A stretch of 64,000 nt of DNA from Spirochaetaceae bacterium (GCA_051531975.1 JAOPTT010000012.1:95783-159782); one strand, 5' to 3'; counted from the stretch's first letter, positions 35,919 to 52,479 are shown. Made by a program: numbers and translations. Notes: generated by a model from the letters alone, not told the origin.

Positions 35919-37322
35919 TTATAGTTTTTTCCTTTTGTATGGATTCATCACTGAAATTGCATCTTTAATTGAGTCTAACTCCCAGCCACCTAAAATTCCA
36001 AATCCTGGTGTATTATGGTGTTGTCTTGCCATATCTGCATGGGTTAAATATCCTTTTAAAATACGGGAACTACTTTGTAGATTGAACTTCTTTTTATTCT
36101 TTATATAGTAGTTTTTAAGTTGGTATTCTCCGTAGGCTTCAGTTAATACTGATCCATTACATACGTCGCACCCAGAGCAGAATTCTATGCTGGCACCTAA
36201 AAGAGATAACAGACCTTCTCGACGGCATTTTGTATTATCTCTTATTAGTTTTGTTATTGATGAATCTTTATCATTTTTTGATGTTAATAGTATAGCTTTT
36301 GCAGGATTTCTATCCCTTCCACCCCGGCCTGATTCCTGTAAATAGGACTCAATTGAATCAGGAGCTTCTAAGTGTATTACTGTTCTAATTCCTTGCTTGT
36401 CGACACCCATCCCATAAGCACATGTTGCGTTCAATATCCCACTATTACTATCAAAAAACCACTTTTCAATGTCACTCTTTTCCTCTTTTGTTAACCCAGC
36501 ATGATAATAAACAATATCATCCCTTTCTAAGCGTCTTGATAAAAATGTACTAGTTAATTCTGTACTAACTCTACTGCTATGAAATATAATAGCAGGTGTT
36601 TCAATGTTGTTAACCAGATGAACTAATGTCTCTTTTTTACTAATACAGGGTATAACAGAATAAGTAATATTAACCCTATCAGGATTTCCTCTGACAACAT
36701 TTGTATCCTCTCCTAGAAATATATATTTAATTACATTATCTACAATCCTCTGAGAGGCAGTTGCGGTATAGGCTGTAACCATCTCTACACCAATAGTTTT
36801 AATGTGTTCACCAACTTCTAAATAGGTAGGTCTAAAACTCTCTCCCCACTCGGAAACTGTATGGGTTTCATCAATTACTACGTGGTTTAAATTAGCTGAT
36901 GACAACAGCTCTAACACAACAGAGGTTCTAAGTGTTTCAGGGTTAGTTAATATAAATTTCACTTCATCGTTTTGTATCTTTTCATAAGCAATACTTTTTT
37001 CAGAGCTACTCATACCACCTTTTAAAATGGTAACTGTACTTCCTGTTTCTAATATTCTTCTCTCTTGATCTGCCATTAGAGAGAGAAGGGGGAATATAAT
37101 TAATGTAATGCCTTCCAACATAATCCCTGGTAACATAAAACATAGGGATTTCCCTGCACCAGTTGGCAGAAGAACTATCTGTCTTGGTATGGTTTCAAGT
37201 TTATCATCATCACCATAATAACCAGCTGCTCGAAGGGTGTTTGATATTACAAGTCTCTGAAATGGGAATATGTAGTCTATGTTAAATAGCTCTTTGGCTT
37301 TGTTATTAATAAAGTCTTCCAT
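35919..37322 (-). CDS. recQ: RecQ-family ATP-dependent DNA helicase (intact, 467 aa, no obvious HRDC)
   Basis: PTGAGKSLC, PLLSLM.DQ, DETH..SEWG..FRP.Y, YHAGL, AYGMGVDK, QESGRGGR, Zn-binding CRR..C..CD.C. Confidence 0.93.
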   Translation of the reverse strand: MEDFINNKAKELFNIDYIFPFQRLVISNTLRAAGYYGDDDKLETIPRQIVLLPTGAGKSLCFMLPGIMLEGITLIIFPLLSLMADQERRILETGSTVTILKGGMSSSEKSIAYEKIQNDEVKFILTNPETLRTSVVLELLSSANLNHVVIDETHTVSEWGESFRPTYLEVGEHIKTIGVEMVTAYTATASQRIVDNVIKYIFLGEDTNVVRGNPDRVNITYSVIPCISKKETLVHLVNNIETPAIIFHSSRVSTELTSTFLSRRLERDDIVYYHAGLTKEEKSDIEKWFFDSNSGILNATCAYGMGVDKQGIRTVIHLEAPDSIESYLQESGRGGRDRNPAKAILLTSKNDKDSSITKLIRDNTKCRREGLLSLLGASIEFCSGCDVCNGSVLTEAYGEYQLKNYYIKNKKKFNLQSSSRILKGYLTHADMARQHHNTPGFGILGGWELDSIKDAISVMNPYKRKKL

Positions 37323-37353
37323 AAAAGATAGATATGGATTTTTTTTGATTAAA

Positions 37354-37373
37354 TTCAGAATGAAAGAATATTT
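37354..37373. promoter_or_regulatory. conserved 20-bp motif at the upstream boundary of recQ copies (copy 1)
   Basis: TTCAGAATGAAAGAATATTT, identical at 40880-40899 and 47161-47180. Confidence 0.8.
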
Positions 37374-37428
37374 GGTAGATGAGAGTTTTAATAAAAGGTC
37401 TTTGTTTGAATTATGATATAATTTATCC

Positions 37429-37752
37429 ATGATAGTTGATTTGGATCTAATTAAAAAAGATATCACAGAAAAATTAAAAGTATTAAACCCAGATAAAATT
37501 ATTTTGTTTGGAAGCTATGTATATGGTACACCAACAGAAAATAGTGATCTTGATATCTGTGTCGTAGAAGATAAAATTGAATCCAAAATTGCGGAGAAAT
37601 CTAAAATACGAGCTTTAGTAAAAGATATTAGACTTCCTAAAGATATTATTGTCTCATATAAAGAAGAGTATGATTTTTATAAAACTGAAATAAATTCTGT
37701 ATTCTATGAAATTGATACTAAGGGTGATTTACTGTGGCAGAAAAATTCTTAA
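37429..37752 (+). CDS. minimal nucleotidyltransferase (MNT antitoxin)
   Basis: LFGS...G.....SDLD; overlaps the HEPN gene. Confidence 0.9.
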   Translation: MIVDLDLIKKDITEKLKVLNPDKIILFGSYVYGTPTENSDLDICVVEDKIESKIAEKSKIRALVKDIRLPKDIIVSYKEEYDFYKTEINSVFYEIDTKGDLLWQKNS

Positions 37753-38036
37753 AACAATATGAACTCTTACTAAAGAAAGCAAAGGTTGATTTAAAAGTAG
37801 CAAAAAATATCTTCAGGGATTTTATTGGAGGTGATGATGAGCTAGATTTAGAAGTTGTAATGTTTCATCTACAACAATCTACAGAGAAGACATTAAAATC
37901 AATTTTAGATTTCAATAAGATAAAGTTTCCAAGAACTCATGATATTGAAGTGTTAATAAATGTTGCTAAAGAGAATGATATAAATTATATTCTGCTTATC
38001 AACACCCATAGCGCGTACTATGGCTTTTTACGCTAA
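37734..38036 (+). pseudogene. HEPN toxin, probably C-terminally truncated
   Basis: FHLQQS.EK.LK, FPRTHDI; the last ~15 codons read through a recQ remnant and the IS end. Confidence 0.75.
37987..38009 (-). repeat. short recQ remnant immediately 3' of the motif V breakpoint
   Basis: Minus strand ATG GGT GTT GAT AAG CAG AAT AT (MGVDKQN..) vs intact ATG GGT GTC GAC AAG CAA. Confidence 0.65.
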
Positions 38037-39125
38037 TGTGGAAGATATACCTAAATAAAGACTGCCGATAATGAAATATGTTTAGTTTCATAACCACACT
38101 ACTCAATTCAATCTTTAAAATTTTATTCACAAAAAGAAAAGACCTAAAATTCACCTTAATGACATTGAAAAAGGAGAATCAGATCTATAAAAGACAATTA
38201 AATCATAAGAAAGCTCATAACTCCTTAAAAAGGAGAGATAGACTTTTCCTTACTCTGATTTTCAAGCTTTCCAGAAAAGCAACCGATCATTTGACTCTTG
38301 TTCAACCTTAGGCTCTTCTCGATTGATAGCGCAGATTCATTAAGAATTTCTGGAGTTACAAACATAAAACACCCGGCAGAAAGCCAGTGTCTAAAGATAT
38401 TAAAGAATTAATCCTGCAGATGAAACAGGAGAATCAACTTTGGGGATGTCATCGTATAGCTGATGAGCTGAAAAAGCTTGGTATCATACTAAATCCAACG
38501 ACTATAAATAGAATAATTCAGACTTTCAGAAGGGACGGGAAGATTCAGCCTATTGGAAGTTGGAAAAAGTTTCTTAAATCACACTGGGATTCATTATTCG
38601 GAATGGATTTTATGACTATAGACACCTTATTCGGTAAAAAATTCTACCTTCTAATCATCCTTGAACTGAAAACACGAAGGATAATCCGGTATGATTTGAC
38701 AGAAAATCCATCGCGAGAATTTGTGAAGCAAAGGATTGAGTTATTTTCTGAAGATTGTTCAGAGAAGAAGACGCTAATCTATGACAATGCACCTCAGTTT
38801 ACATCTATTGATTATAACTGGTATAACATCAAAGGAGTACATTGTTCTTACGCTCCTAAAATGAATGCTTATGTTGAAAGATTGAATGGAACAATTAGAA
38901 GAGAAGCTCTTGATCAATTTCTATTGTTTTCAGAGAAGCAAGTCCGGAAGTTCATAAAGGAGTACGTAGATTATTATAACTATCGACCTCCACATCAAGG
39001 AATTGAGAGTATTCCAGAGAGCTGCATATATCAAACCTCTGGAAATATAAAAAAACAACACATAAGCGGTTTACACCATCATTATTACAGGAGTAGTGCA
39101 TGAAAGTCAAAAAAGCCATAGCACG
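38014..39125 (+). mobile_element. IS-like element with rve/DDE transposase (IS481/IS3-like), defective
   Basis: Inverted repeats CGTACTATGGCTTTTT (38014-38029) and AAAAAGCCATAGCACG (39110-39125), 15/16 match; no target duplication seen. Confidence 0.8.
38078..39103 (+). pseudogene. integrase-core (rve) transposase with three in-frame stops
   Basis: ORFs 38078 and 38387 share a frame, separated by TAG, TGA and TAG at 38309-38329; EN..WG..RI..EL.KLG, DF.T, D..PQF, NAYVER.NGT.RRE. Confidence 0.85.
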
Positions 39126-39206
39126 GGTTTCTAGTTTATCATCATCACCATAAAAACTAGCAGCTCTTAGAGTATTTGATATTACAAGTCTCTGAAAAGG
39201 GAATAT
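39126..39206 (-). pseudogene. recQ: recQ 5' fragment abutting the IS end
   Basis: Encodes IFPFQRLVISNTLRAASFYGDDDKLET; matches intact 37190-37270. Confidence 0.9.
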
Positions 39207-39233
39207 TTAGCAAAATAGGAAAGTTCTACATAA

Positions 39234-39542
39234 CTAATTAAAGGACTTTGGATAATCAGTCGCACCATGGACAATTCTGTAAATAAAAATAGTTTGATCA
39301 ATAACTTTATAGATACAAATATAATCATTACAAACCAACTTTCTGTAGTCTTGCTTCTGTAGCAGTAAATCGGAATGTTTAGTTCCTGCATAGGGTTGGT
39401 TTTCAAGAATCTGTATTGTTTCAAGTAAGTTGTCAGTTATCAATTCAGCTGATTTGGGTCCAACCATTCTTAAATGAAATTCAGCTACTTTTTCAATATC
39501 TCTAATTGCAGGAGCTAGAAATTCAATTTTAAGCTTTGGCAC
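39234..39542 (-). CDS. RelE/ParE-family toxin
   Basis: A..D..., L...P..G, YRKLV...Y..IY, I.RIVHG..DY; overlaps the antitoxin. Confidence 0.88.
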   Translation of the reverse strand: MPKLKIEFLAPAIRDIEKVAEFHLRMVGPKSAELITDNLLETIQILENQPYAGTKHSDLLLQKQDYRKLVCNDYICIYKVIDQTIFIYRIVHGATDYPKSFN

Positions 39543-39813
39543 TAAAATATCTCTCTTTTAGACGGCTTTTCATCTCACTTATTGTAAATGTTTTTTCACC
39601 TGATAGTCGTGACAATTCAGCTTCCATTATTGCCTCACGATGCTTTAGTATTTTCTCCCGTTCTTCGAAAGCCTCAATACTCATGACAACTAAATCTCCT
39701 TCACCATTTTTGGTAATAAAGATTGCTTCATTAGTCTGATGAGCCAAAGAAGAGATACTTCCATAATCGTTTCTTAATGTTGTAGAAGATTTGATTTGCA
39801 TATTATTCTCCAA
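39529..39813 (-). CDS. Phd/YefM-family antitoxin
   Basis: LRNDY..IS, IFITKNGEGDLVVMSIEAFE. Confidence 0.9.
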   Translation of the reverse strand: MENNMQIKSSTTLRNDYGSISSLAHQTNEAIFITKNGEGDLVVMSIEAFEEREKILKHREAIMEAELSRLSGEKTFTISEMKSRLKERYFSAKA

Positions 39814-39900
39814 TTATAATATAATTCTACCTTTATTGTATCATTATTCTGCTATTCAAACAAATGGAATTGTAATATCGGATATATAATTGTGGAAATC

Positions 39901-39937
39901 TTTCATCTTTTAAACCTTACATAGTGTTTTACGCCAT
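39901..39937 (-). other. junction motif after truncated recQ copy 2 (putative recombination site)
   Basis: ATGGCGTAAAACACTATGTAAGGTTTAAAAGATGAAA, 28/37 identical to 46403-46439. Confidence 0.65.
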
Positions 39938-40848
39938 TCCGTAGGCACATGTCGCGTTCAATATCCCTGTATTACTATCAAAGAACCACTTTTCAATCTC
40001 AGTCTTCTCCTCTTTAGTTAGACCAGCATGGTAATAAATAATATTATCCCATTTTAATCTTCTTGATAAAAATGTACTACTTAATTCAGCACTTACTCTA
40101 CTTGAATGAAATATAATTGCAGGAGTTTCGATACTTTTAACCAAATGTACTAGTGTCTCTTTTTTACTAATACAGGGTATAACAGAATCAGTAATATTAA
40201 CCCTATCAGGATTTCCTCTAACAACATTTACACTCTGGTCTAAAAAAATATGTTTAATTACACTCTCTACAATATATTCTGAAGCTGTAGCTGTGTAGGC
40301 AGTGATTAGTTCTATACCCAATGTTTTAACATGTTCTCCAACTTCCAGATATGTTGGTCTGAAAATCTCTCTCCATTGAGAAACAGTATGAGTTTCATCA
40401 ATTACTACGTGATTAATAAAAGCCCCAGATAACAGTTCTAACACCACAGAGGTTCTAAGTGTTTCCGGATTAGTTAAAATAAACTTTACTTCACTGTTTT
40501 TTATCTTTTCATAAGCAATACTTTTTTCAGAGCTACTCATACCACCTTTTAAAATGGTAACTGTACTTCCTGTTTCTAATATTCTTCTTTCCTGATCTGC
40601 CATTAGGGAGAGTAGGGGGAATATGATTAGGGTTATGCCTTCTAACATGATCCCAGGTAACATAAAACAGAGGGATTTTCCTGCACCTGTTGGTAGTAAA
40701 ACTATCTGTCTTGGTATGGTTTCAAGTTTATCATCATCACCATAAAAACCTGCAGCCTACGGGTGTTTGATATTACAAGTCTCTGAAAAGGGAATATGTA
40801 GTCTATGTTAAATAGTTCTTTGGCTTTATTATTAATAAAGTCTTCCAT
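39929..40848 (-). pseudogene. recQ: recQ 5' copy 2, ATG to motif V (AYGMA*), 1-bp frameshift near 40758
   Basis: Colinear with intact 37322-36408 and one base shorter; upstream homology extends to 40900. Confidence 0.93.
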
Positions 40849-41120
40849 AAAAGATATATACTGTATTTCTATGAATAAATTCAGAATGAAAGAATATTTG
40901 TATCTTGATCATTTAGTCATTTTAAAAGTCTAGAAATTTGGGGGAATTCCAGTTCTACAACTCAATTAAATAAGTTATAGTTGGCATAGATTATATAATT
41001 ATTATTATAAAAATTTTGTATCATCCAAAATTAAACACACAAAATTTCTAAACAAACAGATCGGTTCATTATTATAAGCTGAATTTGACTTCTGCTCAAA
41101 TCACTAAATTTTTGTTCAAT

Positions 41121-44120
41121 TCAACTGTTCATTTTTAGAGTTTCACCTAAAACGTGACTAATTTCCGAGATAGTATATGGTTTATGTATAAAACTTGCTA
41201 AACCATTTCTTAATATTTCTTCAATATCCTCATTTTTGTTAAATCCCGATGATATTATAACCTTACAATTCTCATCTATTTCTTTCATCTTGTAAAATGC
41301 TTCTGTTCCACTAATTTTAGGCATTATCATATCCATTAAAACTATATCAATTTGTGAGTGTTTTATTTTAAAAATATCTATTGATTCTAATCCATCTTCC
41401 GCTAATAAAACCTTATATCCGAGAGACTCAAGAATGTCTTTACCCACAATTCTATTAATGTCTTCATCATCAACGAATAAGATTGTACCAGATCCAATTA
41501 AAATAGGACTTTGTTCTTTTTCTAATTTAATAGATGTCTGAGAACAAGGTATACTCATTGTAAATGTCGTACCAAAACCCACTTCACTATCAACTAAGAT
41601 CTCTCCTTCATGATCTACAATTGTTCCAAAAACAGCGGCTAATCCTAATCCTGTTCCCATCCCTTGTTCTTTTGTTGTGAAGAATGGATCGAATATTTTA
41701 TTAAGGATTTCAGATTGAATTCCAGTACCTGAATCACTTACACTGATTTTACAATATTTTCCAGGTTTAATATCAAAAGAACTTGTTTCACAATAAGATT
41801 GGTTTATGTCAATATCATCAGTAATAATATGAATCTCTCCTCCGCCGGTCATAGCATGACTAGCATTAATACACAAATTTAATAGAACATTTTGAAGTTT
41901 AGAACTATCTCCTAGAACATGGCAATTCTGTGCATTATTTTTATTGGAAATGACTATTTTTTTATCAATTGTATAATTAGTAATTGAAACTGTTTCTTCA
42001 ATAATCCTATGTAAATCTACAATATTTGAAGTTAAATTTTCTTTACGCCCAAATAAGAGAAGATTAGATATTGATTTAGCAGCTCGTTTGGATGCCTGTA
42101 ATATAATATTTACATACTTCTTATTCTTATCATCAAGATTTCTTTTGGGAGATAGAAGTAATTGAGCAGAACTCATTATTCCACTTAACATATTATTAAA
42201 ATCATGAGCCATTCCTCCAGCAAGTTGACCAAGAGCTTCCATTTTACTGTTATGGTAAATTTGTTTTTGTAATTTAGCTTTTTCATCTTCTGCACATTTC
42301 TGTTTTGTTATATTTTTTAATATTGCTAAATGTGTTGGATTTCCATTGTTTTTTGTATTGATAGGGGTAATCGTTAGTTCAATCCAGACAATGGAGCCAT
42401 TCTTGTGTATATACCGCTTAATCAGAGAAGACCTTGATCTCTGACCAAGAAGTAAAGGATTAATAATATCAAGAGTAGGTTTAATATCATCAGGATGAGT
42501 TAATTTAATCCAATCAAGTGATAGTAATTCTTCTTTTGTATAACCAATGATTTCTGATAATATTGTATTTACTTCTAATAATTGGCCTGTAATAGGATCA
42601 ATTAATGCTATTCCATATGGAGCTTGTTCAACCATATCTCTCAAACGGGCTTCACTTTCTTTTTGTTTTACTTCTGCTCTTTTACGCTTTGTAATATCAA
42701 TTGAAACAATCATTATATAATCCAAAATACCTTTATTATCACTAACCGGAATAATAGTTGAATGGAACCATAATTCTTTTCCATTAATATCAGAAGCTAA
42801 TGCTTCCAACGTAATAATATCAACTGTGTTTTTAGCTTTTTTTAGACTTGAAGTCATAGAATTTTGAAACGTTTCTGAAGAAAAATAGAAAGGATATGGC
42901 TTACCATAGTGATCTTCAATATTCTCTATATTCAAGCCATCTATCCCCGCACGACTCATATATTGTAAATTGAAATCTAAATCAACTATTTTTGTACATG
43001 CCGGCGAATTTTCGAGATAAGCCAAGTTCCTTTCCTCTGAGAATTTCAATTTTTCCTCAGCTTGTAAACGCTCATAAATCATAATATTTTTTTGACGTAT
43101 TATGCCTGAAATCACATATGCAATGCTTATATCCAGAAAAAATAAGAAGATTATTATAAAACGAATTTGAAAAAATATTTGACTCCACTTTATTTCTAAA
43201 TCTTCATATATAATTGTATTTAATAAAATCCAACTATTTTCTCGGTTATTAAGATTTTCTGAATATGGTCTAATTCGTATTGAAGTATAAATTACATTAT
43301 CTGCAACTATCTGATTTTGTTCTGAGTTTGATATATTCTCAAATAATTTAGGAGATTGAATATTAAAATTTATATCCTTTCTTTCTGAATACATAAATCC
43401 CCATTCTTTTTGAGAATTATTATCATATATCCAATATCCATCATTATTTAGAAGGGAAAATTTTCCTAATTCATCTATTGTTGCCCTTTGTAAATCATCT
43501 AATATTATATTTCCCAAATAATTGAAAATTATTATTCCTTTGTTTTTCATCGTTGTATTATAAACAGGTGTGCCGAATCGAATCATTGGCTTTATTGGTA
43601 ATTCAATTTTATTATTTTCAACATTGAGATCAAATGGTGAATTGTATACTTCATCAATACCAACTGAAATTGATTTAGAAAAATAATATCTGTCTTTTTT
43701 ATTTTGCAATTGAGACTTTTCAACAATAACTGGATGGCCATAATTATAATTTACCCTGACAATCTCATCTCCATTTTCATCAATATATCGGATTTGATCA
43801 TAAACTTTTTTACTTTTAATAAATTGAAGAAATTCATTTTCAATTTTTATTCTGTCAGATTCATTATGAGATTTTTGATAACTTAGAAAATCATTTATAT
43901 TGGGTAAAAAGAACAGATCAGATTGGATGGAATCAAGATGATTCATTATCAGTTCTTTTTGATATTCGATTTGATTCAGTGATGACTTTTTTGTAATTTC
44001 TATTTGACGATTTCTCTCAAGATTTTTAAAAAAAGTAATTGAAGAGAAAGATATTATAAATAGTATCAAAAAGAATATAACAAAAAACCTGAAACGAATT
44101 AAATCTATATTTTTTTTCAT
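41121..44120 (-). CDS. hybrid sensor histidine kinase (Cache-PAS-PAS-HisKA-HATPase-REC)
   Basis: GQLAGGMAHDFNN, NLCINA, DSGTG, PFFTTK..G.GTGLGL, C-terminal VDDE..DMIMP. Confidence 0.93.
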   Translation of the reverse strand: MKKNIDLIRFRFFVIFFLILFIISFSSITFFKNLERNRQIEITKKSSLNQIEYQKELIMNHLDSIQSDLFFLPNINDFLSYQKSHNESDRIKIENEFLQFIKSKKVYDQIRYIDENGDEIVRVNYNYGHPVIVEKSQLQNKKDRYYFSKSISVGIDEVYNSPFDLNVENNKIELPIKPMIRFGTPVYNTTMKNKGIIIFNYLGNIILDDLQRATIDELGKFSLLNNDGYWIYDNNSQKEWGFMYSERKDINFNIQSPKLFENISNSEQNQIVADNVIYTSIRIRPYSENLNNRENSWILLNTIIYEDLEIKWSQIFFQIRFIIIFLFFLDISIAYVISGIIRQKNIMIYERLQAEEKLKFSEERNLAYLENSPACTKIVDLDFNLQYMSRAGIDGLNIENIEDHYGKPYPFYFSSETFQNSMTSSLKKAKNTVDIITLEALASDINGKELWFHSTIIPVSDNKGILDYIMIVSIDITKRKRAEVKQKESEARLRDMVEQAPYGIALIDPITGQLLEVNTILSEIIGYTKEELLSLDWIKLTHPDDIKPTLDIINPLLLGQRSRSSLIKRYIHKNGSIVWIELTITPINTKNNGNPTHLAILKNITKQKCAEDEKAKLQKQIYHNSKMEALGQLAGGMAHDFNNMLSGIMSSAQLLLSPKRNLDDKNKKYVNIILQASKRAAKSISNLLLFGRKENLTSNIVDLHRIIEETVSITNYTIDKKIVISNKNNAQNCHVLGDSSKLQNVLLNLCINASHAMTGGGEIHIITDDIDINQSYCETSSFDIKPGKYCKISVSDSGTGIQSEILNKIFDPFFTTKEQGMGTGLGLAAVFGTIVDHEGEILVDSEVGFGTTFTMSIPCSQTSIKLEKEQSPILIGSGTILFVDDEDINRIVGKDILESLGYKVLLAEDGLESIDIFKIKHSQIDIVLMDMIMPKISGTEAFYKMKEIDENCKVIISSGFNKNEDIEEILRNGLASFIHKPYTISEISHVLGETLKMNS

Positions 44121-44727
44121 AACCAACTCTTTTCAAATTCAAATATATTTTGATTCTCATAAGAACTTAATGGCTCTATTACGCTTGAAATAATTATTAG
44201 TTTTTTCATATTATCTTCCTTTTTTGTATAACACTTTTTACACTACTACTAATTAAAATATGCTACTCCGGCCAAATATCATAAACAAAACCTATTGAAT
44301 CTGTTTGATATATAATTTCTCCAGAATAATAATACTAAAGCCAAATTGTGTAAGAGGAATTGTAAATTTCCCATCAGTTGTTATATTGTTAATATCTAAT
44401 ATTCCACAATAAGTTGGCTTTTTTATCAATTAATCTTAAGGTAAATATAATTTTATTTATATGAGAAAAAGTTATATATTTGGCTATTTAGTTATAGAAC
44501 TATGGATTTGTTAGTTTAGTAGCTATTAAAACCATCACAAACTCCCCCCAAATGGGGTTTTTCACAAAAATAATGGGACTGAAGTTTTAGAACCATATAG
44601 AGTTATTTTTAGAATCGTACTTTAAATTTAAAAGCAATATTGAGATGGTATCATAGTAATAATCTACTGTTTCTTAATGATGATTATTATGTTGAAATTG
44701 AAATAGCTGTATCACCTAGACGTTTCC

Positions 44728-45396
44728 TCAAATAATATAGCCAAAACCATGTACGTTTGATATTAGATATGTTGAAAATCCTGTATTAATTTTTTTTCGT
44801 AGATAACCGATATAAACTGTGACACTGTTAGTATCTACAGAATTATTAATATCCCAGACACTCTCCAGGATCTGCTGTTTACTGACTATTTGTCCATGAT
44901 TCTTCATCAAGAATTCTAGCAACAGAAATTCTTTTCTGGTCAGATATATCTGCTTCTCTGCCCGGTAAACTAATAAGGAAGTAGAGTTTAATACTAGATC
45001 ATCGACTACATAAATAGAGTCTGAACTCCCATCCGGTAACCATTTCCTCAATCTTGCTTTTATTCTGGCAGAGAGTTCCTCAATTTCATAGGGTTTAGTA
45101 ATATAATCATCTGCTCCAGCTTCCAGTCCCTCAACAATATCTGAAACATGGGATTTACCCGAAAGAAATATAATAGGGATCTGTGAGATCTTGCGAATAC
45201 GTCTGCAAACTTCCACCCCATTTAAATTCGGTAACATTATATCCATCAGTATCAGGTCAAAAGAGAAATTATTAAAGTTAGCAATAGCACTCCGTCCATT
45301 GTTAAAAATTTCAACTTCGTATCCATCATTAGTTAGTTCATCCTGTAATAAAAATGCATTGATTTGATCATCTTCTATAATCATTATTTTAGACAT
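44728..45396 (-). CDS. OmpR/PhoB-family response regulator
   Basis: IEDD, DIMLP..NG, GADDYITKP, LT.KEF.LLE.L, G.GY. Confidence 0.93.
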   Translation of the reverse strand: MSKIMIIEDDQINAFLLQDELTNDGYEVEIFNNGRSAIANFNNFSFDLILMDIMLPNLNGVEVCRRIRKISQIPIIFLSGKSHVSDIVEGLEAGADDYITKPYEIEELSARIKARLRKWLPDGSSDSIYVVDDLVLNSTSLLVYRAEKQIYLTRKEFLLLEFLMKNHGQIVSKQQILESVWDINNSVDTNSVTVYIGYLRKKINTGFSTYLISNVHGFGYII

Positions 45397-45440
45397 TGTA
45401 CATCCCTTCTTATGTAAACCTATTGTTTGCTACTTTAGAT

Positions 45441-46172
45441 TTAAAAAATATTTCTTTTTACTAGTCTCTTGTATATGTCGGGATATTCTCTTTTTACACA
45501 CTCAGAACACAAACTATGGCTTATTTCTGCACCTTGGTAATTATTAAGCATATAGGATTCAATATCCTCCCACTCATTATTTTTATTGCGAATTCTTTTA
45601 CAATAAGAACACATAGATAGAATCTTTTTCTGTTTAGACTCTTTTTTATCATTTAAAATTATAAGTTCTTGTTCTAATAATGTCATTTTTGAAATCAAAT
45701 CTAAAAGTAGAATATGTGATTTCATAATTACTGTTATTTGTTTGTTATCTATGACAATAGTGTTATTCATTTGAATTAAGAATTTTTTCAATTTATTACA
45801 TCTCTTCCCTTTTTTTTTCCGGAGTAAATCTCCATCTTGTGGTTTAATTAAAAATGCTTCAGATATTAGGTTACCAAAATATTGTTTGTCAATAACAATA
45901 GGGAATGAAAATTTAATAATATCATTACAACATGAACCTAAAGAACAATTACATTTTTTTTGCTTTTTTTCAGGCTTATATATAACATGTTTAGTACAAC
46001 ATATCGAAGATTTGTATTCATTCATTATAAAACCATTGCATGATTTTCTATTAATATTATCATTTTCCTTTATGTCTATAATTTCACATGAGATTTTAGA
46101 AATATTTTCGAAATTACTTTTCAGCATTGGGAGAAAATTGGATTTTATATTTTCCAAAATAACAGTATTCAT
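45441..46172 (-). CDS. PocR-like sensor domain protein with C-terminal Cys/His motif
   Basis: Cys-rich N-terminus and FSFPIVID; C-terminal CSYCKRIR....W..IE.Y......ISHSLC..C. Confidence 0.6.
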   Translation of the reverse strand: MNTVILENIKSNFLPMLKSNFENISKISCEIIDIKENDNINRKSCNGFIMNEYKSSICCTKHVIYKPEKKQKKCNCSLGSCCNDIIKFSFPIVIDKQYFGNLISEAFLIKPQDGDLLRKKKGKRCNKLKKFLIQMNNTIVIDNKQITVIMKSHILLLDLISKMTLLEQELIILNDKKESKQKKILSMCSYCKRIRNKNNEWEDIESYMLNNYQGAEISHSLCSECVKREYPDIYKRLVKRNIF

Positions 46173-46402
46173 TATTCATCCTTATAATAGTCTTTTTAAT
46201 TAATAGTCATTTTTTAAATACTCACCAAATTAGCTAATCTAATTTAGCAATAGTTTATTTCATTTAAATCTTATTTCTTAATTTCATAAAAAATTAAATT
46301 CTAATTCAATTTAAAATGTTAAAGGGGAGAAATAAAGATTTAAGTATAAAATTATATTAATTTAATAAGAATTAATTTGGATGGCCTCATTATAGAACAA
46401 TT

Positions 46403-46439
46403 TTTCACTGTTTAAACTATATATCGTGATTTAGGCCAT
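46403..46439 (-). other. junction motif after truncated recQ copy 3
   Basis: ATGGCCTAAATCACGATATATAGTTTAAACAGTGAAA. Confidence 0.65.
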
Positions 46440-47129
46440 ACCATATGCACAAGTTGCATTCAATATCCCTGTATCACTATCAAAAAACCACTTCTCTATT
46501 TCAGTTTTTTCCTCTTTAGTTAATCCAGCATGGTAATAAATAATATCATCTCTTACTAACCTTCTAGCTAAAAATGTACTAGTTAATTCTGTACTTACTC
46601 TACTTGAGTGAAAGATAATTGCAGGTGTTTCTATATTTTTAACAAGATGAACTAATGTCTTTTTTTTATTAATACAGGGAATAACGGAATAATTATTATT
46701 AACCCTATCAGGATTTCCTCTGACAACATTTGTATCCTCCCCTAAAATATATATTTAATAACATTATCTACAATTCTCTGGGAGGCAGTTGCGGTATAGG
46801 CTGTAACCATCTCCACACCAATAGTTTTAATATGTTCCCCAACTTCTAAATAGGTAGGTCTAAAACTCTCTCCCCATTCTGATACAGTGTGGGTTTCATC
46901 AATTACTACGTGGTTAATAAAAGCCCCAGATAACAGTTCTAACACCACAGAGGGATTTTCCTGCACCTGTTGGTAGTAAAACTATCTGTCTTGGTATGGT
47001 TTCAAGTTTATCATCATCACCATAAAAACCTGCAGCCCTAAGGGTGTTTGATATTACAAGTCTCTGAAATGGGAATATGTAGTCTATGTTAAATAGTTCT
47101 TTTGCTTTGCCATTAATAAAGTCTTCCAT
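46431..47129 (-). pseudogene. recQ: recQ 5' copy 3, ATG to motif V (AYGMA*), 221-bp internal deletion plus frameshift
   Basis: Explains ORFs 46914-47186 and 46742-46966; deletion junction ACAGAGG at 46947-46953; upstream homology to 47180. Confidence 0.93.
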
Positions 47130-47450
47130 AAAAGATATATATGGTGTTTCTATGAATAACTTCAGAATGAAAGAATATTTAAGCATTTGTCAAAAAGATA
47201 TGGTGTTGAAATTATTATAGAAGCTGTAGAGCAAAAAGAAGGTGGTTTTAGATAAATATGGAAAAATATTCTGTTACTGCACTTACATCCATAAATAGTA
47301 AGATAGAATACTATCCATTTACAGTAAAATCCAGTATATTTTACCTAGGGTTATGTTCATAATATGGAAGTATATCAGGAACAGTACTGTTTTCATTTAC
47401 GAAGTTCGTTTTAATAAGATCGGAACTGGAAAATTTGAATAATTTACACC

Positions 47451-49667
47451 ATGGTTAAGAATTTAGATGTTGCTACTATTAAGGGGAATTCCATTAGAAA
47501 AGAAGCGTTTCATTTAATCCTGATTGTTTTTCTCTTTCTATTTTCTGCAAGTAATATAACTGCTGCTCCAGAAATACAGCCCCCGATAGCTATTGAAGGT
47601 GTTATCGATCTGCAGAACTATAACTTTGAAAAAGACGGCTCCATCAATCTTTCCGGTCAATGGAACTTTTTCTGGAGTGAGTTGCTTAATCCTGATCAAC
47701 TCACTGATTACAGCAATTCAATATATGTTTCTGTCCCTGATAAATGGACCAATTATCAAATAGATAACGTAAATATCACTGCCAAAGGATGGGCTACTTA
47801 CTCCTTGAATATGCTTGTTCCCGATGACAATCAGATATATGGAATCTACATTAAAAGTGAGGGGAGTGCTTATAAGCTTTGGATTGACGGACAGCTTATG
47901 GCTTATGGCGGACAGCTAGGCACTTCTTTAAAAACTGAAACCCCAAACATAGGGCCAGTCAGGGTTTTCTTTGAACCGGAAAATGATAAAGTCGAAATCG
48001 TTGTTCAAATATCAAACTATCACCACCGAAAAGCAGGGTTTCGGAATGCGTTTTTACTAGGTTTAGCGGAACCTGTTCATCAACAAATGCAGAACTGGAT
48101 TGTGGCAGCCATCTCAATTGCGATCTTTTTTATAATGGGTCTATATCATCTATTTTTATTTATATTCCAGACCAGGGATAAATCACCCCTATACTTTGCC
48201 ATTATATGCTGGTTATTAACTGTTCGAGGAATAGCTATAAATAAGATTATTTTGCTTTATTTCATCCCTTCCATGAGCTGGACTTTAGCTTTTAGGCTGG
48301 AATACCTGACATTTTTTATAATTCCTTTACTATTCACACTGTTCATGCGAAGTTTGTATCCAAAAGAGCTAAATCCCTGGTTTATGCGAATTATAATTGG
48401 AATTGTCTGCTCATTTTCACTGTTTTTACTATTCACAAGTACAATAACATTAAGTTACGCGGCACCTTACTTTCAATACTTTATCCTAGGTACTATTATA
48501 TATTGGTTATTTTTTCTTGTTAGAATTCTAATCCATCGCCGTGAGGGAGCTTACTACATTGCATTAGCTTCATTTTTGCTGTTTATTACTGTAATTATGG
48601 AAACATTGTATTTTAGAGATGTAGTCAATCTGGGACATGTCACAACTTTGGGATTTCTTGCCTTTATTTTTGTTCAGGCAATATTGTTGTCATTTCGTTT
48701 TTCCAAATCGTTTACCAGAGTAGAAAGCTTATCTGTCGAGTTAAAAGAAACAAATATCAATCTGGAACATAGTGAAAAAAAATATCGTAATATCTTCAAC
48801 GATTCCAAAGATGTTATTTTTATTACAACAATGGATACAACCATTGAAGATATCAGCCCCTCCTGCAAAGAAATTCTTGGTTATACAAAAGAAGAATTAA
48901 TTGATAAGAAAGTTGAAGATATCATGGTTAATCCAGCTGAGATATCCTTATACATTGAAAAAATCAGGGAAAAGAAGTCGATAAAGAATATTGAGGTATA
49001 TGTTCAAAAAAAGGATGGTAAAGACATAAGTACACTTGTCAGTGTTAGTTATCGCCAAGATGAAAAGGGTACGATAATTGGAGTTCAAGGTACTCTGCAT
49101 GATCTCTCTGCTATAAAAGAAGCCGAAGCTGAACGGTTGAATGCACAAAAACTCGAACAAATCTCAATAACTGATCCTCTGACAGGAATATACAACCGCC
49201 GATATTTATTCCAGGAAGCCGAAAAAGAGATAGACCGTGCCAAACGACAAGATGAGCCGCTGACAGTTATCTTTTTTGATATTGATCACTTTAAGATAAT
49301 TAATGATACCTACGGACATCTAATCGGTGACCAAATTCTAATCGGTCTTACTGCCTTGTGTCAGAAACATATTAGAAATATCGATATTTTGACCAGGTTT
49401 GGGGGTGAAGAATTTGTTATATTAATGCCTGCTACAGATATCAACTCAGCTGAGATGACTGCTGAACGATTACGGAAGATAGTCTCTGAAACCCCGCTTA
49501 CAAAATTTAAATCTAAAGAAATATCTATAACTATTAGTTTGGGTATTGCTCTTTGGAAGCAATCTAATTCTTTAGACTTTAATGAATTGTTGGAACAAGC
49601 TGACAATGCACTATATCAGTCTAAAGAGGGCGGAAGAAATCAAGTTACTATTTTCTCTGAAGGATAA
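47451..49667 (+). CDS. 7TM-DISM/PAS diguanylate cyclase
   Basis: L.G.W.F.W..L sensor domain, 7TM region, PAS, TDPLTG.YNRR, GGEEF. Confidence 0.9.
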   Translation: MVKNLDVATIKGNSIRKEAFHLILIVFLFLFSASNITAAPEIQPPIAIEGVIDLQNYNFEKDGSINLSGQWNFFWSELLNPDQLTDYSNSIYVSVPDKWTNYQIDNVNITAKGWATYSLNMLVPDDNQIYGIYIKSEGSAYKLWIDGQLMAYGGQLGTSLKTETPNIGPVRVFFEPENDKVEIVVQISNYHHRKAGFRNAFLLGLAEPVHQQMQNWIVAAISIAIFFIMGLYHLFLFIFQTRDKSPLYFAIICWLLTVRGIAINKIILLYFIPSMSWTLAFRLEYLTFFIIPLLFTLFMRSLYPKELNPWFMRIIIGIVCSFSLFLLFTSTITLSYAAPYFQYFILGTIIYWLFFLVRILIHRREGAYYIALASFLLFITVIMETLYFRDVVNLGHVTTLGFLAFIFVQAILLSFRFSKSFTRVESLSVELKETNINLEHSEKKYRNIFNDSKDVIFITTMDTTIEDISPSCKEILGYTKEELIDKKVEDIMVNPAEISLYIEKIREKKSIKNIEVYVQKKDGKDISTLVSVSYRQDEKGTIIGVQGTLHDLSAIKEAEAERLNAQKLEQISITDPLTGIYNRRYLFQEAEKEIDRAKRQDEPLTVIFFDIDHFKIINDTYGHLIGDQILIGLTALCQKHIRNIDILTRFGGEEFVILMPATDINSAEMTAERLRKIVSETPLTKFKSKEISITISLGIALWKQSNSLDFNELLEQADNALYQSKEGGRNQVTIFSEG

Positions 49668-49697
49668 GTTTTAAAAGGAAGATAAATCAAGCCTATG

Positions 49698-49930
49698 GGT
49701 GTACTATAGTTTTTACCAAATCTACCAATGTCTCTTTTTTACTAATGCAAGGTATACAGAGTACCTAATATTATTCCTATCAGGATTTCACTGCTCTAGT
49801 AGGCATTCAAACTATCTTTCTTGGTATGTTTTCAAGTTTATCATCATCAAAATAAAAACCTGAAGCTCTATGGGTGTTCGCTATTACAAGTCCATGGAGT
49901 GGGAATATGTAGTCTATGTTAAATAGTTCT
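49698..49930 (-). pseudogene. recQ: highly decayed recQ 5' copy 4 with a large internal deletion
   Basis: 49698-49789 resembles intact ~36594-36688, joined to a match of intact ~37146-37292 (e.g. gggaatatgtagtctatgttaaatag). Confidence 0.85.
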
Positions 49931-50586: not shown

Positions 50587-52479
50587 TTAATCCTTTACAA
50601 TTGCATTTAATAGATTAAATCTCAAAGAAAGAGCATCTTTTTCTAATACTAAATCAAAGTTTAATACACTCTTCTTAAAAAAGTAATAAGATAAAGCTGC
50701 AAAAGCAGCAGTAGGTATCGCAAGATCTAGTATTAAAGCACTATCGAGAGGGCTATACAGTGAATCAGTAATATCCATAGGTGTTGTAGCGTCATGATAA
50801 TCATCTTTTATCAACGCATTATTAATAGCAACAGCTGTAGCTAGAGCTCCAGTAAGAACTGCCCCACTTAAAAAAGTATAACCTGTTATATTATAAATAA
50901 ATTTATCTCTTTTTGCAATCTTTATAGGTTCTTCAATTTCAAATAATCTATTTTCAATAATATTTAGCTCATAGGATATTGTATGTTTAACATCAGTTAC
51001 TAATATTTTACTCTCTAGATCTGGAAATATCTCAACTAGTTTATAAAATGTATTCTCAGCTTCATTTTTATATCTACCAGTTAATAACCAACTACCCCTT
51101 GGAAGCTCATTATATCCCTCTACCAATTCGTATTGTAAATCTGTAAAATTTTCAGGATTATCCAATATTTTTGTAGGGTAATAAAATTGATCATCACTAT
51201 TTTTATCTATTAGCAGAATGTCTTTATTATCTTCAAAGAAGAAGGACTCTCTACCAGGTTTTATTTTTTTTGCCATAAATTCAACATTGTTATATAGTGG
51301 TTCCGCTGTTTCAAAGTTAATAGAGCCAATAGTAGATATTGGTCCCAAATTCTTTAATAATTCTTCAATTTTGAGTCTTTCTTTTTCAACTAAAAGTAAG
51401 GCTGATTTAGCTTCTTCTGATAACTTTTGGGCTTCTAGAATTGAGCTTTCAGCTCTCTGTTCAGCTTTCAGTTTGCTTTCTAAAGCTATTTCTAAAGCCT
51501 TTTCAGCTTCAGCTTTATCTAATTTACTACTCTCTAGAAGCACTGAATTTGCTAATTCAATAGCTTCTTTAGCTAACTCGATATTTTGTAACAGTGCAGC
51601 CGTTTTTAGTGCCTCTATTCCTATTGCAATAGATGCAGCTTCAGCTACTTGTTCAGCAAATTTTTTATCTTCTTCAGCTTGTATTAGTTTTGCTCGTGCT
51701 TCTCGAATTTTTGATGAAACTAAATAAAAGCTTGATGATAGACTAGCACTAATCCATGGTATCTGATTATTATTTGTTGTTTTTTTTACACTTAATGTAA
51801 CTGATCTAAACATATCCTCTAGTTTTTCACTATTATCTATATACTTTAGAAATGAAGTTGTAAATACTCCGTTTCTGCCGTTTCCATCTAAAGCAACATC
51901 TCCTGGGGAAGTTGCAAAAATTATAGCTGATCCAATATCTCCACCCGAAACTTGAACAACAGATAGACCTCGAGATTTAGAAGAGCTTCTTGATGCTACT
52001 TTGGCAAAGGGATTATCTCTACATGCATCTAATATCAATAGACTCATATCTGGTTTTATTATATTAAAAACTTCGGAGATATAGCTTAAACTAACTGCAT
52101 CTAACTTAACATCATCGACTGTTTCAAGTTTTGTTTTAATAGGCAGTAAATAGTTTTCTCCATCAATTTGCATTCCGTGTCCTGCGTAGTAGATAAGAAC
52201 TGAAGGATTCTCATAATCCATAGCTACATTTTTAAAGTTTGTAATTGATTTTAACATATTTCGTCTATCTGCATCTAAAACTAGGGTAACATCCCAACCA
52301 ATAGATTCTAACTTCTCAGATATATCAATAGCATCATTAACTGGGTTTTTTAATTTGGCCGACCCTGAATAATCAGCATTACCAATAACCAATGCCAGTC
52401 TATTTTCTTCTTGTGAATAAATCGAAAACATAATGAAATTAATACACAAAAGGACTAGTGTTTTTTTAATGTTTATCAT
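50587..52479 (-). CDS. caspase-like (Peptidase C14) protein with signal peptide, coiled coil and C-terminal TM segments
   Basis: ALVIGN..Y, L.NPVNDA, YYAGHG, ILDACR.NP, A.DG.GRNG.FT, Q.PW. Confidence 0.9.
   Translation of the reverse strand: MINIKKTLVLLCINFIMFSIYSQEENRLALVIGNADYSGSAKLKNPVNDAIDISEKLESIGWDVTLVLDADRRNMLKSITNFKNVAMDYENPSVLIYYAGHGMQIDGENYLLPIKTKLETVDDVKLDAVSLSYISEVFNIIKPDMSLLILDACRDNPFAKVASRSSSKSRGLSVVQVSGGDIGSAIIFATSPGDVALDGNGRNGVFTTSFLKYIDNSEKLEDMFRSVTLSVKKTTNNNQIPWISASLSSSFYLVSSKIREARAKLIQAEEDKKFAEQVAEAASIAIGIEALKTAALLQNIELAKEAIELANSVLLESSKLDKAEAEKALEIALESKLKAEQRAESSILEAQKLSEEAKSALLLVEKERLKIEELLKNLGPISTIGSINFETAEPLYNNVEFMAKKIKPGRESFFFEDNKDILLIDKNSDDQFYYPTKILDNPENFTDLQYELVEGYNELPRGSWLLTGRYKNEAENTFYKLVEIFPDLESKILVTDVKHTISYELNIIENRLFEIEEPIKIAKRDKFIYNITGYTFLSGAVLTGALATAVAINNALIKDDYHDATTPMDITDSLYSPLDSALILDLAIPTAAFAALSYYFFKKSVLNFDLVLEKDALSLRFNLLNAIVKD

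Follow-up and report, generated by a model that had tools for sequence, protein, structure and literature searches.

The minus strand of the window (the whole stretch of 64,000 nucleotides of DNA from a Spirochaetaceae bacterium that was analysed here) carries one intact RecQ-family gene (35919-37322) and, upstream of it, four displaced copies of its 5′ part, which are 83-91% identical to the intact gene and have different cargo between them. That this array is real has been confirmed. The break at which the copies end is the insertion site of serine-recombinase islands in related spirochaetes, so the locus looks as though it has been taking up foreign genes while the target gene was kept. We favour, with moderate confidence, the reading that it is an accretion array of gene-restoring cassettes, which lack a recombinase, derive from islands of large serine recombinases (LSRs), and are stacked at the LSR attachment site (attB) in motif V of recQ. 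The interpretation of the array that came with an earlier, sequence-only reading of the same DNA is partly supported.

The array upstream of recQ

The RecQ-family protein of the window matches the DEAD/DEAH and Helicase_C core (PF00270 and PF00271) in Pfam, with no match to RecQ_Zn_bind at E<=0.001 and none to HRDC. Its orthologues in G019, G022 and G034 match RecQ_Zn_bind, and two of them also RQC; there are two more RecQ paralogues in the window's genome. The copies were matched to region 36407-37374 of the intact gene by BLAST self-comparison and by a repeat finder, which agree on the one intact gene and four displaced 5′ copies, all on the minus strand, that the sequence-only reading had reported. 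The features are as follows, with a slash marking the break.

35919-36406, minus strand: resident 3′ part of the RecQ-family helicase gene, amino acids 307-467, from motif V onward (ORF and Pfam Helicase_C)
36407-37374, minus strand: arm 1, the 5′ arm with the predicted promoter, amino acids 1-306, fused in frame to the 3′ part (BLAST)
At 36407, minus strand: join of arm 1 and the 3′ part, ATGG/GTGTCGAC, i.e., undisturbed motif V, attB-like (sequence)
37429-38036, plus strand: cargo of the newest unit, MNT nucleotidyltransferase (37429-37752; Pfam PF01909) and HEPN protein (37734-38036; Pfam PF05168)
37989-38009, minus strand: scrap MGVDKQN, recQ sequence just 3′ of the break, B′-like, abutting the IS (36 of 300 shuffles reach its score)
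38010-39129, plus strand: rve-family IS, ORFs 38078-38311 and 38387-39103 (Pfam rve/rve_3)
39130-39210, minus strand: arm remnant, amino acids ~18-44 (match 39126-39210, 88% identity over 85 nt, to 37191-37275)
39234-39813, minus strand: cargo, ParE toxin (39234-39542; Pfam PF05016) and Phd/YefM antitoxin (39529-39813; Pfam PF02604)
39879-39933, minus strand: junction of unit 2, a stop codon right after the break, then a ~55-nt motif, a P′-like half-site (TATGT at +11), attL-like
39934-40900, minus strand: arm 2, displaced, of full arm length, ending AYGM/ (BLAST self-comparison, 85.5% identity to the intact arm over 968 nt), with a frameshift near the 5′ end (tblastn match split at amino acids 31/32)
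41121-46172, minus strand: cargo, hybrid histidine kinase (41121-44126), OmpR-type response regulator (44728-45396) and PocR-domain protein (45441-46172) (Pfam)
46381-46435, minus strand: junction of unit 3, motif as at 39879-39933, more diverged
46436-47180, minus strand: arm 3, displaced, with a ~214 nt internal deletion and a frameshift (BLAST self-comparison; 46436-46953 at 87.9% and 46947-47180 at 90.6% identity to the intact arm)
47451-49667, plus strand: cargo, 7TMR-DISM / PAS / GGDEF diguanylate cyclase (Pfam)
49712-49930, minus strand: arm 4, oldest and most decayed, in two pieces (49712-49789 and 49783-49930; 83-84% identity to 36610-36688 and 37146-37293), internally deleted and truncated at both ends, with start, middle and break end lost

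The shared boundaries of the repeated segment that had been claimed from the sequence are borne out by the alignment. Arms 1-3 have a common upstream boundary (AAATATTCTTTCATTCTGAA, ~50 nt before the ATG), and the downstream boundary is identical to the base in arms 2 and 3 (...TAYGGNATGG/) and lies in the motif V codons (AYGM/G). The 3′ part of recQ is single in the array, and no copy reaches beyond 36407 in the BLAST self-comparison. The unit is an attL-like scar, then cargo, then a 0.97-kb arm with the predicted recQ promoter and codons 1-306, which is the structure described before (a junction motif, cargo, and the recQ upstream region with ~0.9 kb of 5′ coding part). The gene-proximal arm continues in frame into the one 3′ part, so that recQ is whole and the attB-like sequence there is again undisturbed. 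Just before the ATG, the arm has a −35 sequence, (C/T)TGAAT, and a −10 sequence, TATATA, and this predicted pair, also present in the G001 and G003 orthologues and less clear in that of G002, suggests that the arm can drive recQ. Arm 4, the outermost, is the most decayed, and the proposal that each insertion of a unit rebuilds recQ and shifts the former 5′ half upstream is supported.

The kinds of cargo named before (MNT-HEPN, Phd-ParE, PocR/OmpR/hybrid kinase and a 7TM-DISM GGDEF protein) were confirmed by Pfam; the HEPN match ends at profile position 69 of 117, so this gene looks truncated. The IS, whose ends were set by a homologue on contig C2 (88-91% identity), has inverted ends without a target duplication, and is located at a deletion that took most of one arm. 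Of the remnant that the sequence-only reading took to be split by an IS, the IS and the piece at 39126-39210 stand, whereas the piece at 38009-37987 is not significant in the shuffles.

All arm/cargo junctions recur, at an even depth of 32-40, in the Logan contigs, a second assembly of the one run that contains the window DNA. The copies are 9-19% diverged, and are therefore not collapsed or duplicated reads. The same architecture is found in genomes of one to four contigs (G001, G019, G022, G034 and G071). On the other side, the Logan contigs end within arms, so that the long-range order of the cassettes is supported by the original assembly alone, and, as the run is probably that of the source sample itself, it adds no independent support. 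Taken together, an assembly artefact (a worry raised before) or a chance similarity is hardly credible. No circular unit was detected in the contigs.

The break in recQ and the islands of serine recombinases

In three Spirochaetia genomes (G025, G037 and G071), LSR islands split recQ exactly at AYGM/. In G071, a one-contig genome, an island of ~26.9 kb with genes for an LSR (Pfam Resolvase and Recombinase), ParA and restriction lies between recQ amino acids 305-389 and amino acids 3-307. In G037, amino acids 3-306 are on one contig and amino acids 304-428 on another, directly abutting a 561-aa LSR; in G025, the LSR gene begins ~60 nt past the 5′ half of recQ, and the 3′ half is on another contig. 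The island junctions have inverted P/P′ arms (CTTATGTTAAAT at one junction, ATTTAACATAAG at the opposite one); B/P′ and P/B′ half-sites with inverted P and P′ are seen in G037 and G071, and in the attR of G025 and G001. Judged from these junctions, the recQ break is the attachment site (attB) of an LSR family, inside the motif V codons, and is not arbitrary, which corrects the earlier account.

The units in the window have attL-like left junctions with the P′ motif and no attR, their right end being the recQ arm. Their ~55-nt junction motif after the break resembles the P′ half-site of the LSR islands, so the junctions can be read as attL-like scars. TATGT is present at +11 after ATGG in arm 2 of the window, in a fragment on contig C17, in the recQ2-type junctions of G005 and G028 and in G022, and at +12 to +14 in LSR islands, while only 380 of the 23825 ATGG sites (1.6%) in the window's genome have it at +8 to +17. 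The P′ likeness is that of a short AT-rich motif, of which arm 3, a C6 fragment and G034 have only degenerate versions; a search with the motif pattern matched 13 genomes versus 7 matches for a reversed control, and only 7 of the 13 are real recQ junctions.

At least eight genomes besides that of the window have recombinase-less restoring cassettes at the same recQ break, with both polarities represented, and the break itself is found in at least 12 junctions across genera. The 5′-restoring form is present in the window, G003, G019, G022 and G034 and, on a paralogue and free of cargo, in G005, G028 and G224. The 3′-restoring form is present in G001, with 7.8 kb of cargo between an intact 593-aa RecQ and, after it, a displaced fragment of the 3′ part, which has an attR-like P arm. 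An intact target together with a displaced fragment that has exactly the shared break is found in the window, G022, G034, G005, G028, G224 and G001, and beyond the break, cassettes from different genera and on two paralogues have a conserved junction motif that is not recQ sequence. The comparison with relatives that the sequence-only reading had proposed thus agrees with it: the AYGM/ break is the same, the number of units ranges from 0 to 4, and the cargo differs. No LSR gene was found in the restoring cassettes (of 9 genomes), and a recQ arm was found in none of the three LSR islands at recQ.

The earlier claim that the array encodes no integrase holds, as none was found by Pfam in 30-56 kb of the window. 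For the window's genome (rated 98.5% complete), a search for an LSR gave 0 hits to PF07508 and nothing by tblastn with the G025 LSR. Its recombinases are two small resolvases and four tyrosine recombinases, all on other contigs (the four PF00589 hits are on C17, C8 and C6; none is on C12), and the genome thus offers no candidate for the recombinase in trans that had been suggested. The units themselves are without a recombinase, their flanking sites are attL-like and attB-like, and there is no cognate element in the genome. With no LSR encoded, the array is either fixed or moving by homologous recombination only.

How the array may have formed

LSR islands inserting at motif V would normally split recQ, as in the three relatives. 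Some island-derived DNA may have become linked to the missing half of recQ and to a hybrid att site, either by aberrant excision, as in lambda gal/bio transducing phages, or by one-sided homologous repair. The captured molecule, without a recombinase, could then enter any recQ via its ~1-kb arm by RecA-type homologous recombination, i.e., a Campbell-type insertion, which would duplicate the arm, restore recQ and displace the older arms further from the gene; the arms would afterwards be shuffled and homogenised by exchange and gene conversion among them. More tentatively, it is possible that such cassettes spread without a recombinase of their own, as a “half-gene hitchhiker”: cargo, ~1 kb of a housekeeping gene and a hybrid att scar would travel between species, entering by a RecA single crossover and always repairing the gene, with LSR islands as the source of cargo. 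If this is true, integron-like arrays of signalling, toxin-antitoxin and defence genes are built at recQ and comM, LSR islands supply new cargo, and the regenerated attB keeps the site open for the next island. The window's genome does have another such array, at comM, which is without a recombinase and whose arms are 0.86 kb long and from the 3′ part.

The arms themselves bear on the mode of entry. In a three-way alignment, arm 3 follows arm 2 at 26 sites versus 7 in columns 1-500, and follows the intact arm at 40 sites versus 3 in columns 501-700. The two arms within a genome are 99.7% identical in G034 and 98.5% in G022, but only ~60-73% between species; the cargo of these two is 85-100% identical between species (98.5% over 3 kb), and along the first ~600 nt of the arm, identity drops from 86% to 61%. 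The mosaic arms of the window, and the arms homogenised within G034 and within G022 beside near-identical cargo, point to homologous recombination through the arm, which lends weight to the earlier idea of the arm as a recombination hook, and the sequences support a transfer of cargo between species for this pair. The mosaic pattern could come from gene conversion after insertion and need not show how the units entered. The three long arms of the window form one clade relative to the sampled species, so that duplication in place followed by divergence is possible for them. The upstream boundary shared by arms 1-3 implies one ancestral arm module; it counts against the favoured reading that this leaves three unrelated cargoes between the same two boundaries unaccounted for. 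The scrap at 37989-38009 suggests that the break of the newest unit was ~22 nt further into recQ, which is not predicted by a single crossover point.

The same structure could have been built by site-specific stacking. Complete LSR elements with a recQ 5′ arm beside attP would integrate at motif V and regenerate a usable attB; the right site would not be attR, there would be no excision, and the recombinase would be lost later, or else the LSR of a visiting island would act in trans, as with cis-mobilisable elements. This would suit the exact downstream boundary of arms 2 and 3, the recurrence of the break across genera and the attL-like junctions, while the outermost position of the oldest arm fits insertion always at the gene-proximal site; PMC3146451 offers a parallel in the tandem serine-recombinase islands at ssrA in Dehalococcoides, some without an integration module. 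However, the arms are mosaic and, in G034 and G022, homogenised to the local gene, and an LSR and the arm have not been found together in any island or cassette, nor an LSR in the window's genome. Moreover, the site of a circle would be a B/P′ hybrid. The pairs that canonical LSRs recombine are attP/attB and attL/attR, and they are not known to join attL to attB. We therefore regard site-specific stacking as unlikely.

Less likely again is homologous recombination or duplication alone, i.e., partial tandem duplications of recQ with cargo inserted later and a common break that reflects only the conservation of motif V. Arms that cluster by genome, the evident gene conversion between them and the cargo-free cassettes on the paralogue would be in keeping with it, but LSR genes abut exactly the same break in three genomes, with inverted P/P′ arms, the conserved non-recQ motif follows the break in different genera and two paralogues, and random duplication would give neither a base-exact break nor an immediate stop codon. 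Mosaic arms and conversion between them could also recall a silent-cassette system, in which the displaced 5′ copies would be gene-conversion donors that vary RecQ, as with pilS or vls cassettes. This is very improbable: the copies carry frameshifts and deletions and are separated by kilobases of unrelated cargo, their differences are spread along the length with many shared-ancestry sites rather than in hypervariable patches, and variation would have no obvious use in RecQ, a repair enzyme that acts inside the cell.

Comparison with known systems

An accretion array of gene-restoring cassettes at recQ has its nearest counterpart in Dehalococcoides. As described in PMC3146451, genomic islands with a CcrB-like serine recombinase lie there in tandem at ssrA, islands without an integration module are discussed as cis-mobilisable elements and in terms of accretion, and SCC composite islands are mentioned. 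The likeness to the recQ array is in the tandem stacking beside a single-copy essential gene at a serine-recombinase site, the target repeat that bounds each unit and the units without an integration module; cargo and island number differ between strains there (PMC3146451). In that account, the Dehalococcoides repeat is 20 bp of the 3′ end of an RNA gene and most islands keep the recombinase module, whereas the recQ repeat is a 0.97-kb half of a protein gene with a predicted promoter, a recombinase is absent from every unit, and the arms have sufficient length for homologous recombination and bear signs of it.

In staphylococci, SCC and pseudo-SCC cassettes, inserted by LSRs, accumulate in tandem at rlmH (orfX), and members without ccr are common; their repeats, of ~15-20 bp, lie at the very 3′ end of the gene, mobilisation is by CcrAB acting at the sites on either side, and kilobase arms are absent. 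The recQ array is similar in having tandem cassettes at one gene and members without a recombinase, and differs in its kilobase arms.

Elements that restore their target gene include SXT at prfC and phage 21 / e14 at icd; the replacement segments of gene-restoring islands are tens to ~200 nt, compared with ~970 nt for the recQ arm. Such islands are described at tRNA and tmRNA genes (the Islander concept; PMC4383910) and for dusA-specific integrases (PMC4482086). As at recQ, the element replaces the displaced part of the gene, the displaced fragment marks the far end, and tandem islands leave several fragments. Gene-restoring islands use and carry tyrosine integrases, whereas the recQ cassettes carry no recombinase and, unlike those islands, have both 5′-restoring and 3′-restoring forms at the same site.

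In the case of lambda gal/bio, aberrant excision links the host flank, on either side, to a hybrid att and part of the element, and the product can enter a new host through homology with the captured host DNA; the lambda integrase is a tyrosine integrase. The two polarities and hybrid junctions at recQ are alike, with the capture step here a proposed one, and we know of no natural stacked arrays from a process of this type.

The recQ array is not an integron, and the integron-like mechanism suggested before does not hold. The array resembles an integron in that cargo units that look promoterless are lined up in order beside a fixed anchor, the newest being closest to it. Unlike an integron, it is without IntI, attI and attC; no attC-like element was seen at the bounds of the units, which are the 0.97-kb recQ arm and the 55-nt junction motif. 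Its units contain several genes, in either orientation, together with regulators of their own, and its repeat is a gene half rather than a recombination hairpin.

A single recQ gene and its displaced 5′ parts

Between 35.9 and 50 kb of the window there is a single intact gene for a RecQ-family helicase, with DEAD and Helicase_C domains (Pfam). A BLAST search of the gene region against the window, with which a repeat finder agrees, reveals four more pieces of the 5′ part of the gene.

The intact recQ gene and its displaced pieces (nucleotide identities are to the intact gene region)
35919-37466, minus strand: open reading frame of the intact gene, with the conserved start ATGGAAGAC at 37322
39934-40900, minus strand: copy 2, 85.5% identical over 968 nt to 36407-37374
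46436-46953 and 46947-47180, minus strand: copy 3, 87.9% and 90.6% identical to 36407-36925 and 37140-37373, with about 214 nt deleted
49712-49789 and 49783-49930, minus strand: copy 4, 83-84% identical to 36610-36688 and 37146-37293
39126-39210, minus strand: remnant, 88% identical to 37191-37275

No copy reaches past 36407; thus, the 3′ part of recQ is present only once. In the alignment, the match of copies 2 and 3 to the gene ends at the identical base, after ...TAYGGNATGG (codons AYGM|G of helicase motif V), and past this break both copies run into a stop codon and then into a common motif of about 55 nt. The three long arms (that within the intact gene, copy 2 and copy 3; an arm comprises 0.97 kb, i.e., the promoter and the part of recQ encoding amino acids 1-306) also have an identical first base (AAATATTCTTTCATTCTGAA), about 50 nt ahead of the ATG. 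The upstream stretch reads (C/T)TGAAT and, after 18 nt, TATATA a few bases ahead of the ATG, a layout that also precedes the orthologues of G001 and G003 and is less clear in that of G002 (three genomes of the same genus). Thus, each arm brings its own promoter-like stretch.

The cargo between the copies consists of MNT/HEPN genes (the HEPN protein being truncated), an rve-type IS and ParE/Phd; PocR, an OmpR-type regulator and a hybrid kinase; and a 7TMR-DISM GGDEF protein (all by Pfam). The IS (38010-39129) is without target duplication, and the displaced arm of the newest unit is mostly deleted there: the IS sits between arm codons ~18-44 and a 21-nt scrap (37989-38009), which reads MGVDKQN, i.e., recQ just past the break, where the junction motif would stand. 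The scrap alone is not significant; together, the truncated HEPN gene, the IS and the scrap suggest an IS-mediated deletion, with the break of the newest unit differing from the others. Just past the outer end of the array there is a gene for a caspase-like protein (Peptidase_C14; 50587-52479), and another lies just past the outer end of a comM array elsewhere in the same genome (contig C6:173360-174568).

The sequence-only reading had described an intact recQ with displaced 5′ copies, an exact upstream boundary common to copies 1-3 and an exact downstream boundary common to copies 2 and 3, the cargo named here, and a repeat unit composed of junction motif, cargo and recQ arm; all of this is borne out. 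An assembly artefact was considered and rejected: the copies diverge by 9-19% from one another, and all arm/cargo junctions are evenly covered. The single public DNA run that contains the region (probably the source sample, kept as contigs) has contigs that span every such junction without a mismatch, and their depth is even (32-40). These contigs break within the arms (36656-37260, 40183-40792 and 46726-47073), so the unit order is that of the original assembly.

Serine-recombinase islands at motif V

In three related genomes, the recQ orthologue is split at the same codons by DNA that encodes a large serine recombinase (LSR). In G025, an open reading frame with a serine-recombinase N-terminus begins about 60 nt past the junction of the recQ 5′ half, the 3′ half being on another contig. 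In G037, amino acids 3-306 and 304-428 are encoded on two contigs, and a gene for a 561-amino-acid recombinase directly abuts the second piece. The genome of G071 consists of one contig; here about 26.9 kb of island DNA lies between the parts encoding amino acids 305-389 and 3-307, and this island contains the recombinase (Resolvase and Recombinase domains), ParA, a type ISP restriction enzyme, GmrSD and IS elements. The junctions in G037 are inverted half-sites (...ATGG GACAGGCTTCTTATGTTAAAT versus ATTTAACATAAGAGCAGTC...ATGG), those of G071 and the attR of G025 are alike, and the recombinase gene adjoins attR in both G037 and G071. The motif V codons of recQ thus define a previously undescribed putative attB for a spirochaete LSR family.

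None of the three islands carries a spare recQ half, and no intact copy of the split orthologue was found in the three genomes. Excision of the island would rebuild recQ, which makes regulated gene integrity a possibility. A scan of genome contigs with the LSR alignment yielded no more recQ-targeting islands: the G037 record alone was close, the remaining 79 loci being generic serine recombinases of at most 34% identity. A scan of viral contigs with the same alignment found no relative.

Gene-restoring cassettes without a recombinase

Matches to the RecQ protein are present in 59 of 61 related genomes. The breakpoint that the sequence-only reading had proposed to seek upstream of recQ in relatives is found in G022 and G034: each has, some kilobases upstream of the intact orthologue, a displaced 5′ copy that ends at amino acids 305-307. 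In G003 and G019 the 5′ pieces are decayed and lie 16 kb and 38 kb upstream. G005, G028 and G224 show this break in another RecQ paralogue; the partial copy lies just 136 nt or so ahead of the intact gene, so there is no cargo in this cassette. In G001, 7.8 kb of cargo separates a canonical RecQ of 593 amino acids from a displaced 3′ fragment downstream (Zn-binding, RQC and HRDC domains), which begins at motif V and has an attR-like P arm (GTATATAAGAGC...ATGG) ahead of it. This is the mirror image of the units in the window, i.e., there are 5′- and 3′-restoring forms at one site. Synteny with G001-G003 gave no empty site, as the flanks are not conserved there and such a site is not definable. 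A scan of metagenome contigs with the arm protein returned one locus, a plain intact orthologue. In G056, a genome of another family, a short contig (C114) has two 5′ starts of the recQ orthologue (6-281 and 1718-2338), 1.7 kb apart, which may be a further array.

The window's genome (5.46 Mb in 29 contigs, rated 98.5% complete) also contains two solo recQ pieces (C17:54801-55040 and C6:152635-152871), which begin near amino acid 227, end at the same codon (amino acids ~227-306; 72% and 58% protein identity) and have the same junction motif. Both are far from any recQ gene; one has a molybdopterin-biosynthesis gene on one side and an ABC transporter gene on the other.

The junction motif resembles the P′ half-site of the islands, and the junctions of the recombinase-less cassettes are therefore read, by sequence likeness, as attL-like scars of serine-recombinase insertion. 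A TATGT core stands at +11 past ATGG in copy 2, the C17 fragment, G005/G028 and G022, and at +12 to +14 in the LSR islands; in the window's genome only 380 of 23825 ATGG sites (1.6%) have TATGT at +8 to +17. Copy 3, the C6 fragment and G034 have degenerate versions. As a detector the pattern is too weak: across 401 genomes it matched in 13, against 7 matches of the reversed control, and 6 of 7 new matches had no recQ homology.

No serine recombinase is encoded in the annotated restoring cassettes (those of the window, G001, G003, G019, G022 and G034, and the cargo-free G005, G028 and G224). A recombinase acting in trans had been proposed from the sequence; a search of the window's genome gave no Recombinase-domain protein (0 matches) and no homologue of the G025 enzyme. 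What it has are two near-identical genes for 198-amino-acid resolvases/invertases (C1:53119-53556 and C10:276754-277191), which are small types unrelated to the recQ LSRs, and four tyrosine recombinases, all on contigs other than that of the window.

The arms themselves recombine. In a three-way alignment of the intact arm, copy 2 and copy 3, the sites at which copy 3 agrees with just one of the others were counted.

Agreement of copy 3 along the arm
Columns 1-500: with copy 2 at 26 sites, with the intact arm at 7
Columns 501-700: with copy 2 at 3 sites, with the intact arm at 40
Columns 701-968: with copy 2 at 14 sites, with the intact arm at 17

The arms of the window are thus mosaic, and homologous recombination acts on them. 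In a tree the window's three long arms group together to the exclusion of the three other species of the genus (support 93/100). The congeneric species G034 and G022 share their cargo, made up of a GGDEF-PtsI fusion, a two-component pair and a B12-radical SAM enzyme. This cargo is 85-100% identical between them (98.5% over 3 kb); outside the locus, their flanks cannot be aligned. Their arm pairs are 99.7% (G034) and 98.5% (G022) identical within the genome and only about 60-73% between the species, and across the first ~600 nt of the intact arm the identity declines gradually from 86% to 61%. It follows that the cargo has moved or swept between species, with crossovers ending inside the arm, and that the arms have been converted to the local gene. 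In other genomes, the identity between a genome's two arms is 66-97%.

The same logic is seen outside the window in the array at comM (encoding a Mg-chelatase-like ATPase; C6:150725-173267), where the break is at the Walker A codons and three displaced 3′ copies of amino acids ~220-504 follow the intact gene.

The comM array on contig C6
150725-152238: intact comM
156990-157843: displaced 3′ copy, 87%
167864-168522: displaced 3′ copy, 90.5%
172573-173267 and 171416-171510: displaced 3′ copy, 82%

Its cargo includes, besides IS remnants, genes for a hybrid kinase of 1853 amino acids, an ankyrin protein and a PP-loop ATPase. No recombinase is present in the array, and the C6 solo recQ fragment with its junction motif sits inside the first unit. 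This parallel suggests that the process is general in this lineage.

Origin of the array and comparison with known systems

The units have the structure described here, an attL-like junction, an in-frame fusion that restores the gene, no recombinase, and arms that recombine with each other. We consider it somewhat probable that serine-recombinase islands were the source of gene-restoring cassettes that lack a recombinase, and that the array grew as such cassettes accreted, entering by homologous crossover. LSR islands would insert at motif V and split recQ, and island DNA would become linked to a gene half and a hybrid site, either by aberrant excision, in the way that lambda gal/bio phages arise, or by one-sided homologous repair. 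Aberrant excision would explain the capture of either half of recQ and, given that the recombinase adjoins attR in G037 and G071, capture on the left side would lose it. A single homologous crossover through the 1-kb arm would then bring the molecule into recQ, duplicating the arm, restoring the gene and displacing older arms outward, and the next island would find an attB-like sequence left undisturbed. The three unrelated cargoes between the same two boundaries are unaccounted for by this model.

The exact breaks would also fit integration of arm-bearing elements by site-specific recombination, with the recombinase lost afterwards or acting in trans; this is unlikely, because a serine recombinase would have to pair an attL-like site with attB, which is not known as a canonical reaction of these enzymes, and no arm-bearing LSR element was found. 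Duplication with no recombinase at all is more doubtful still, being a poor fit with the recombinase genes that abut the site and with a common junction motif that is not from recQ. The view of an integron-like array has to be given up, as the array has no intI and no attC-like element was seen in it. Of the sequence-only mechanism the unit structure stands; what it lacked is the reading of the break as a recombinase attachment site.

Many genomic islands are integrase-less, and how they move is for the most part unexplained. The recQ locus offers a concrete, testable route by which an island arriving by serine recombinase would become a fixed or homology-mobile cassette, the target gene being repaired and the insertion site re-opened. 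In the literature searched (subscription journals and supplements being mostly outside its scope), neither arrays of this kind nor an integration target in recQ were found described.

The composite islands of SCC are among the closest described systems, and gene-restoring islands are known at prfC and icd. Also among the closest are the gene-restoring islands at tRNA genes (PMC4383910) and dusA (PMC4482086), and the tandem ssrA islands of Dehalococcoides, with repeats of 20 bp and a serine recombinase of the CcrB-like type; some of the latter are without an integration module and are discussed in terms of cis-mobilisable elements and accretion (PMC3146451). In comparison with these systems, the restoring segment is 0.97 kb long including a promoter (0.86 kb at comM), both polarities occur at one site, the restoring units are wholly without recombinases, the array in the window is not an integron, and the evidence points to homologous recombination rather than a recombinase as what governs the present behaviour of the units.
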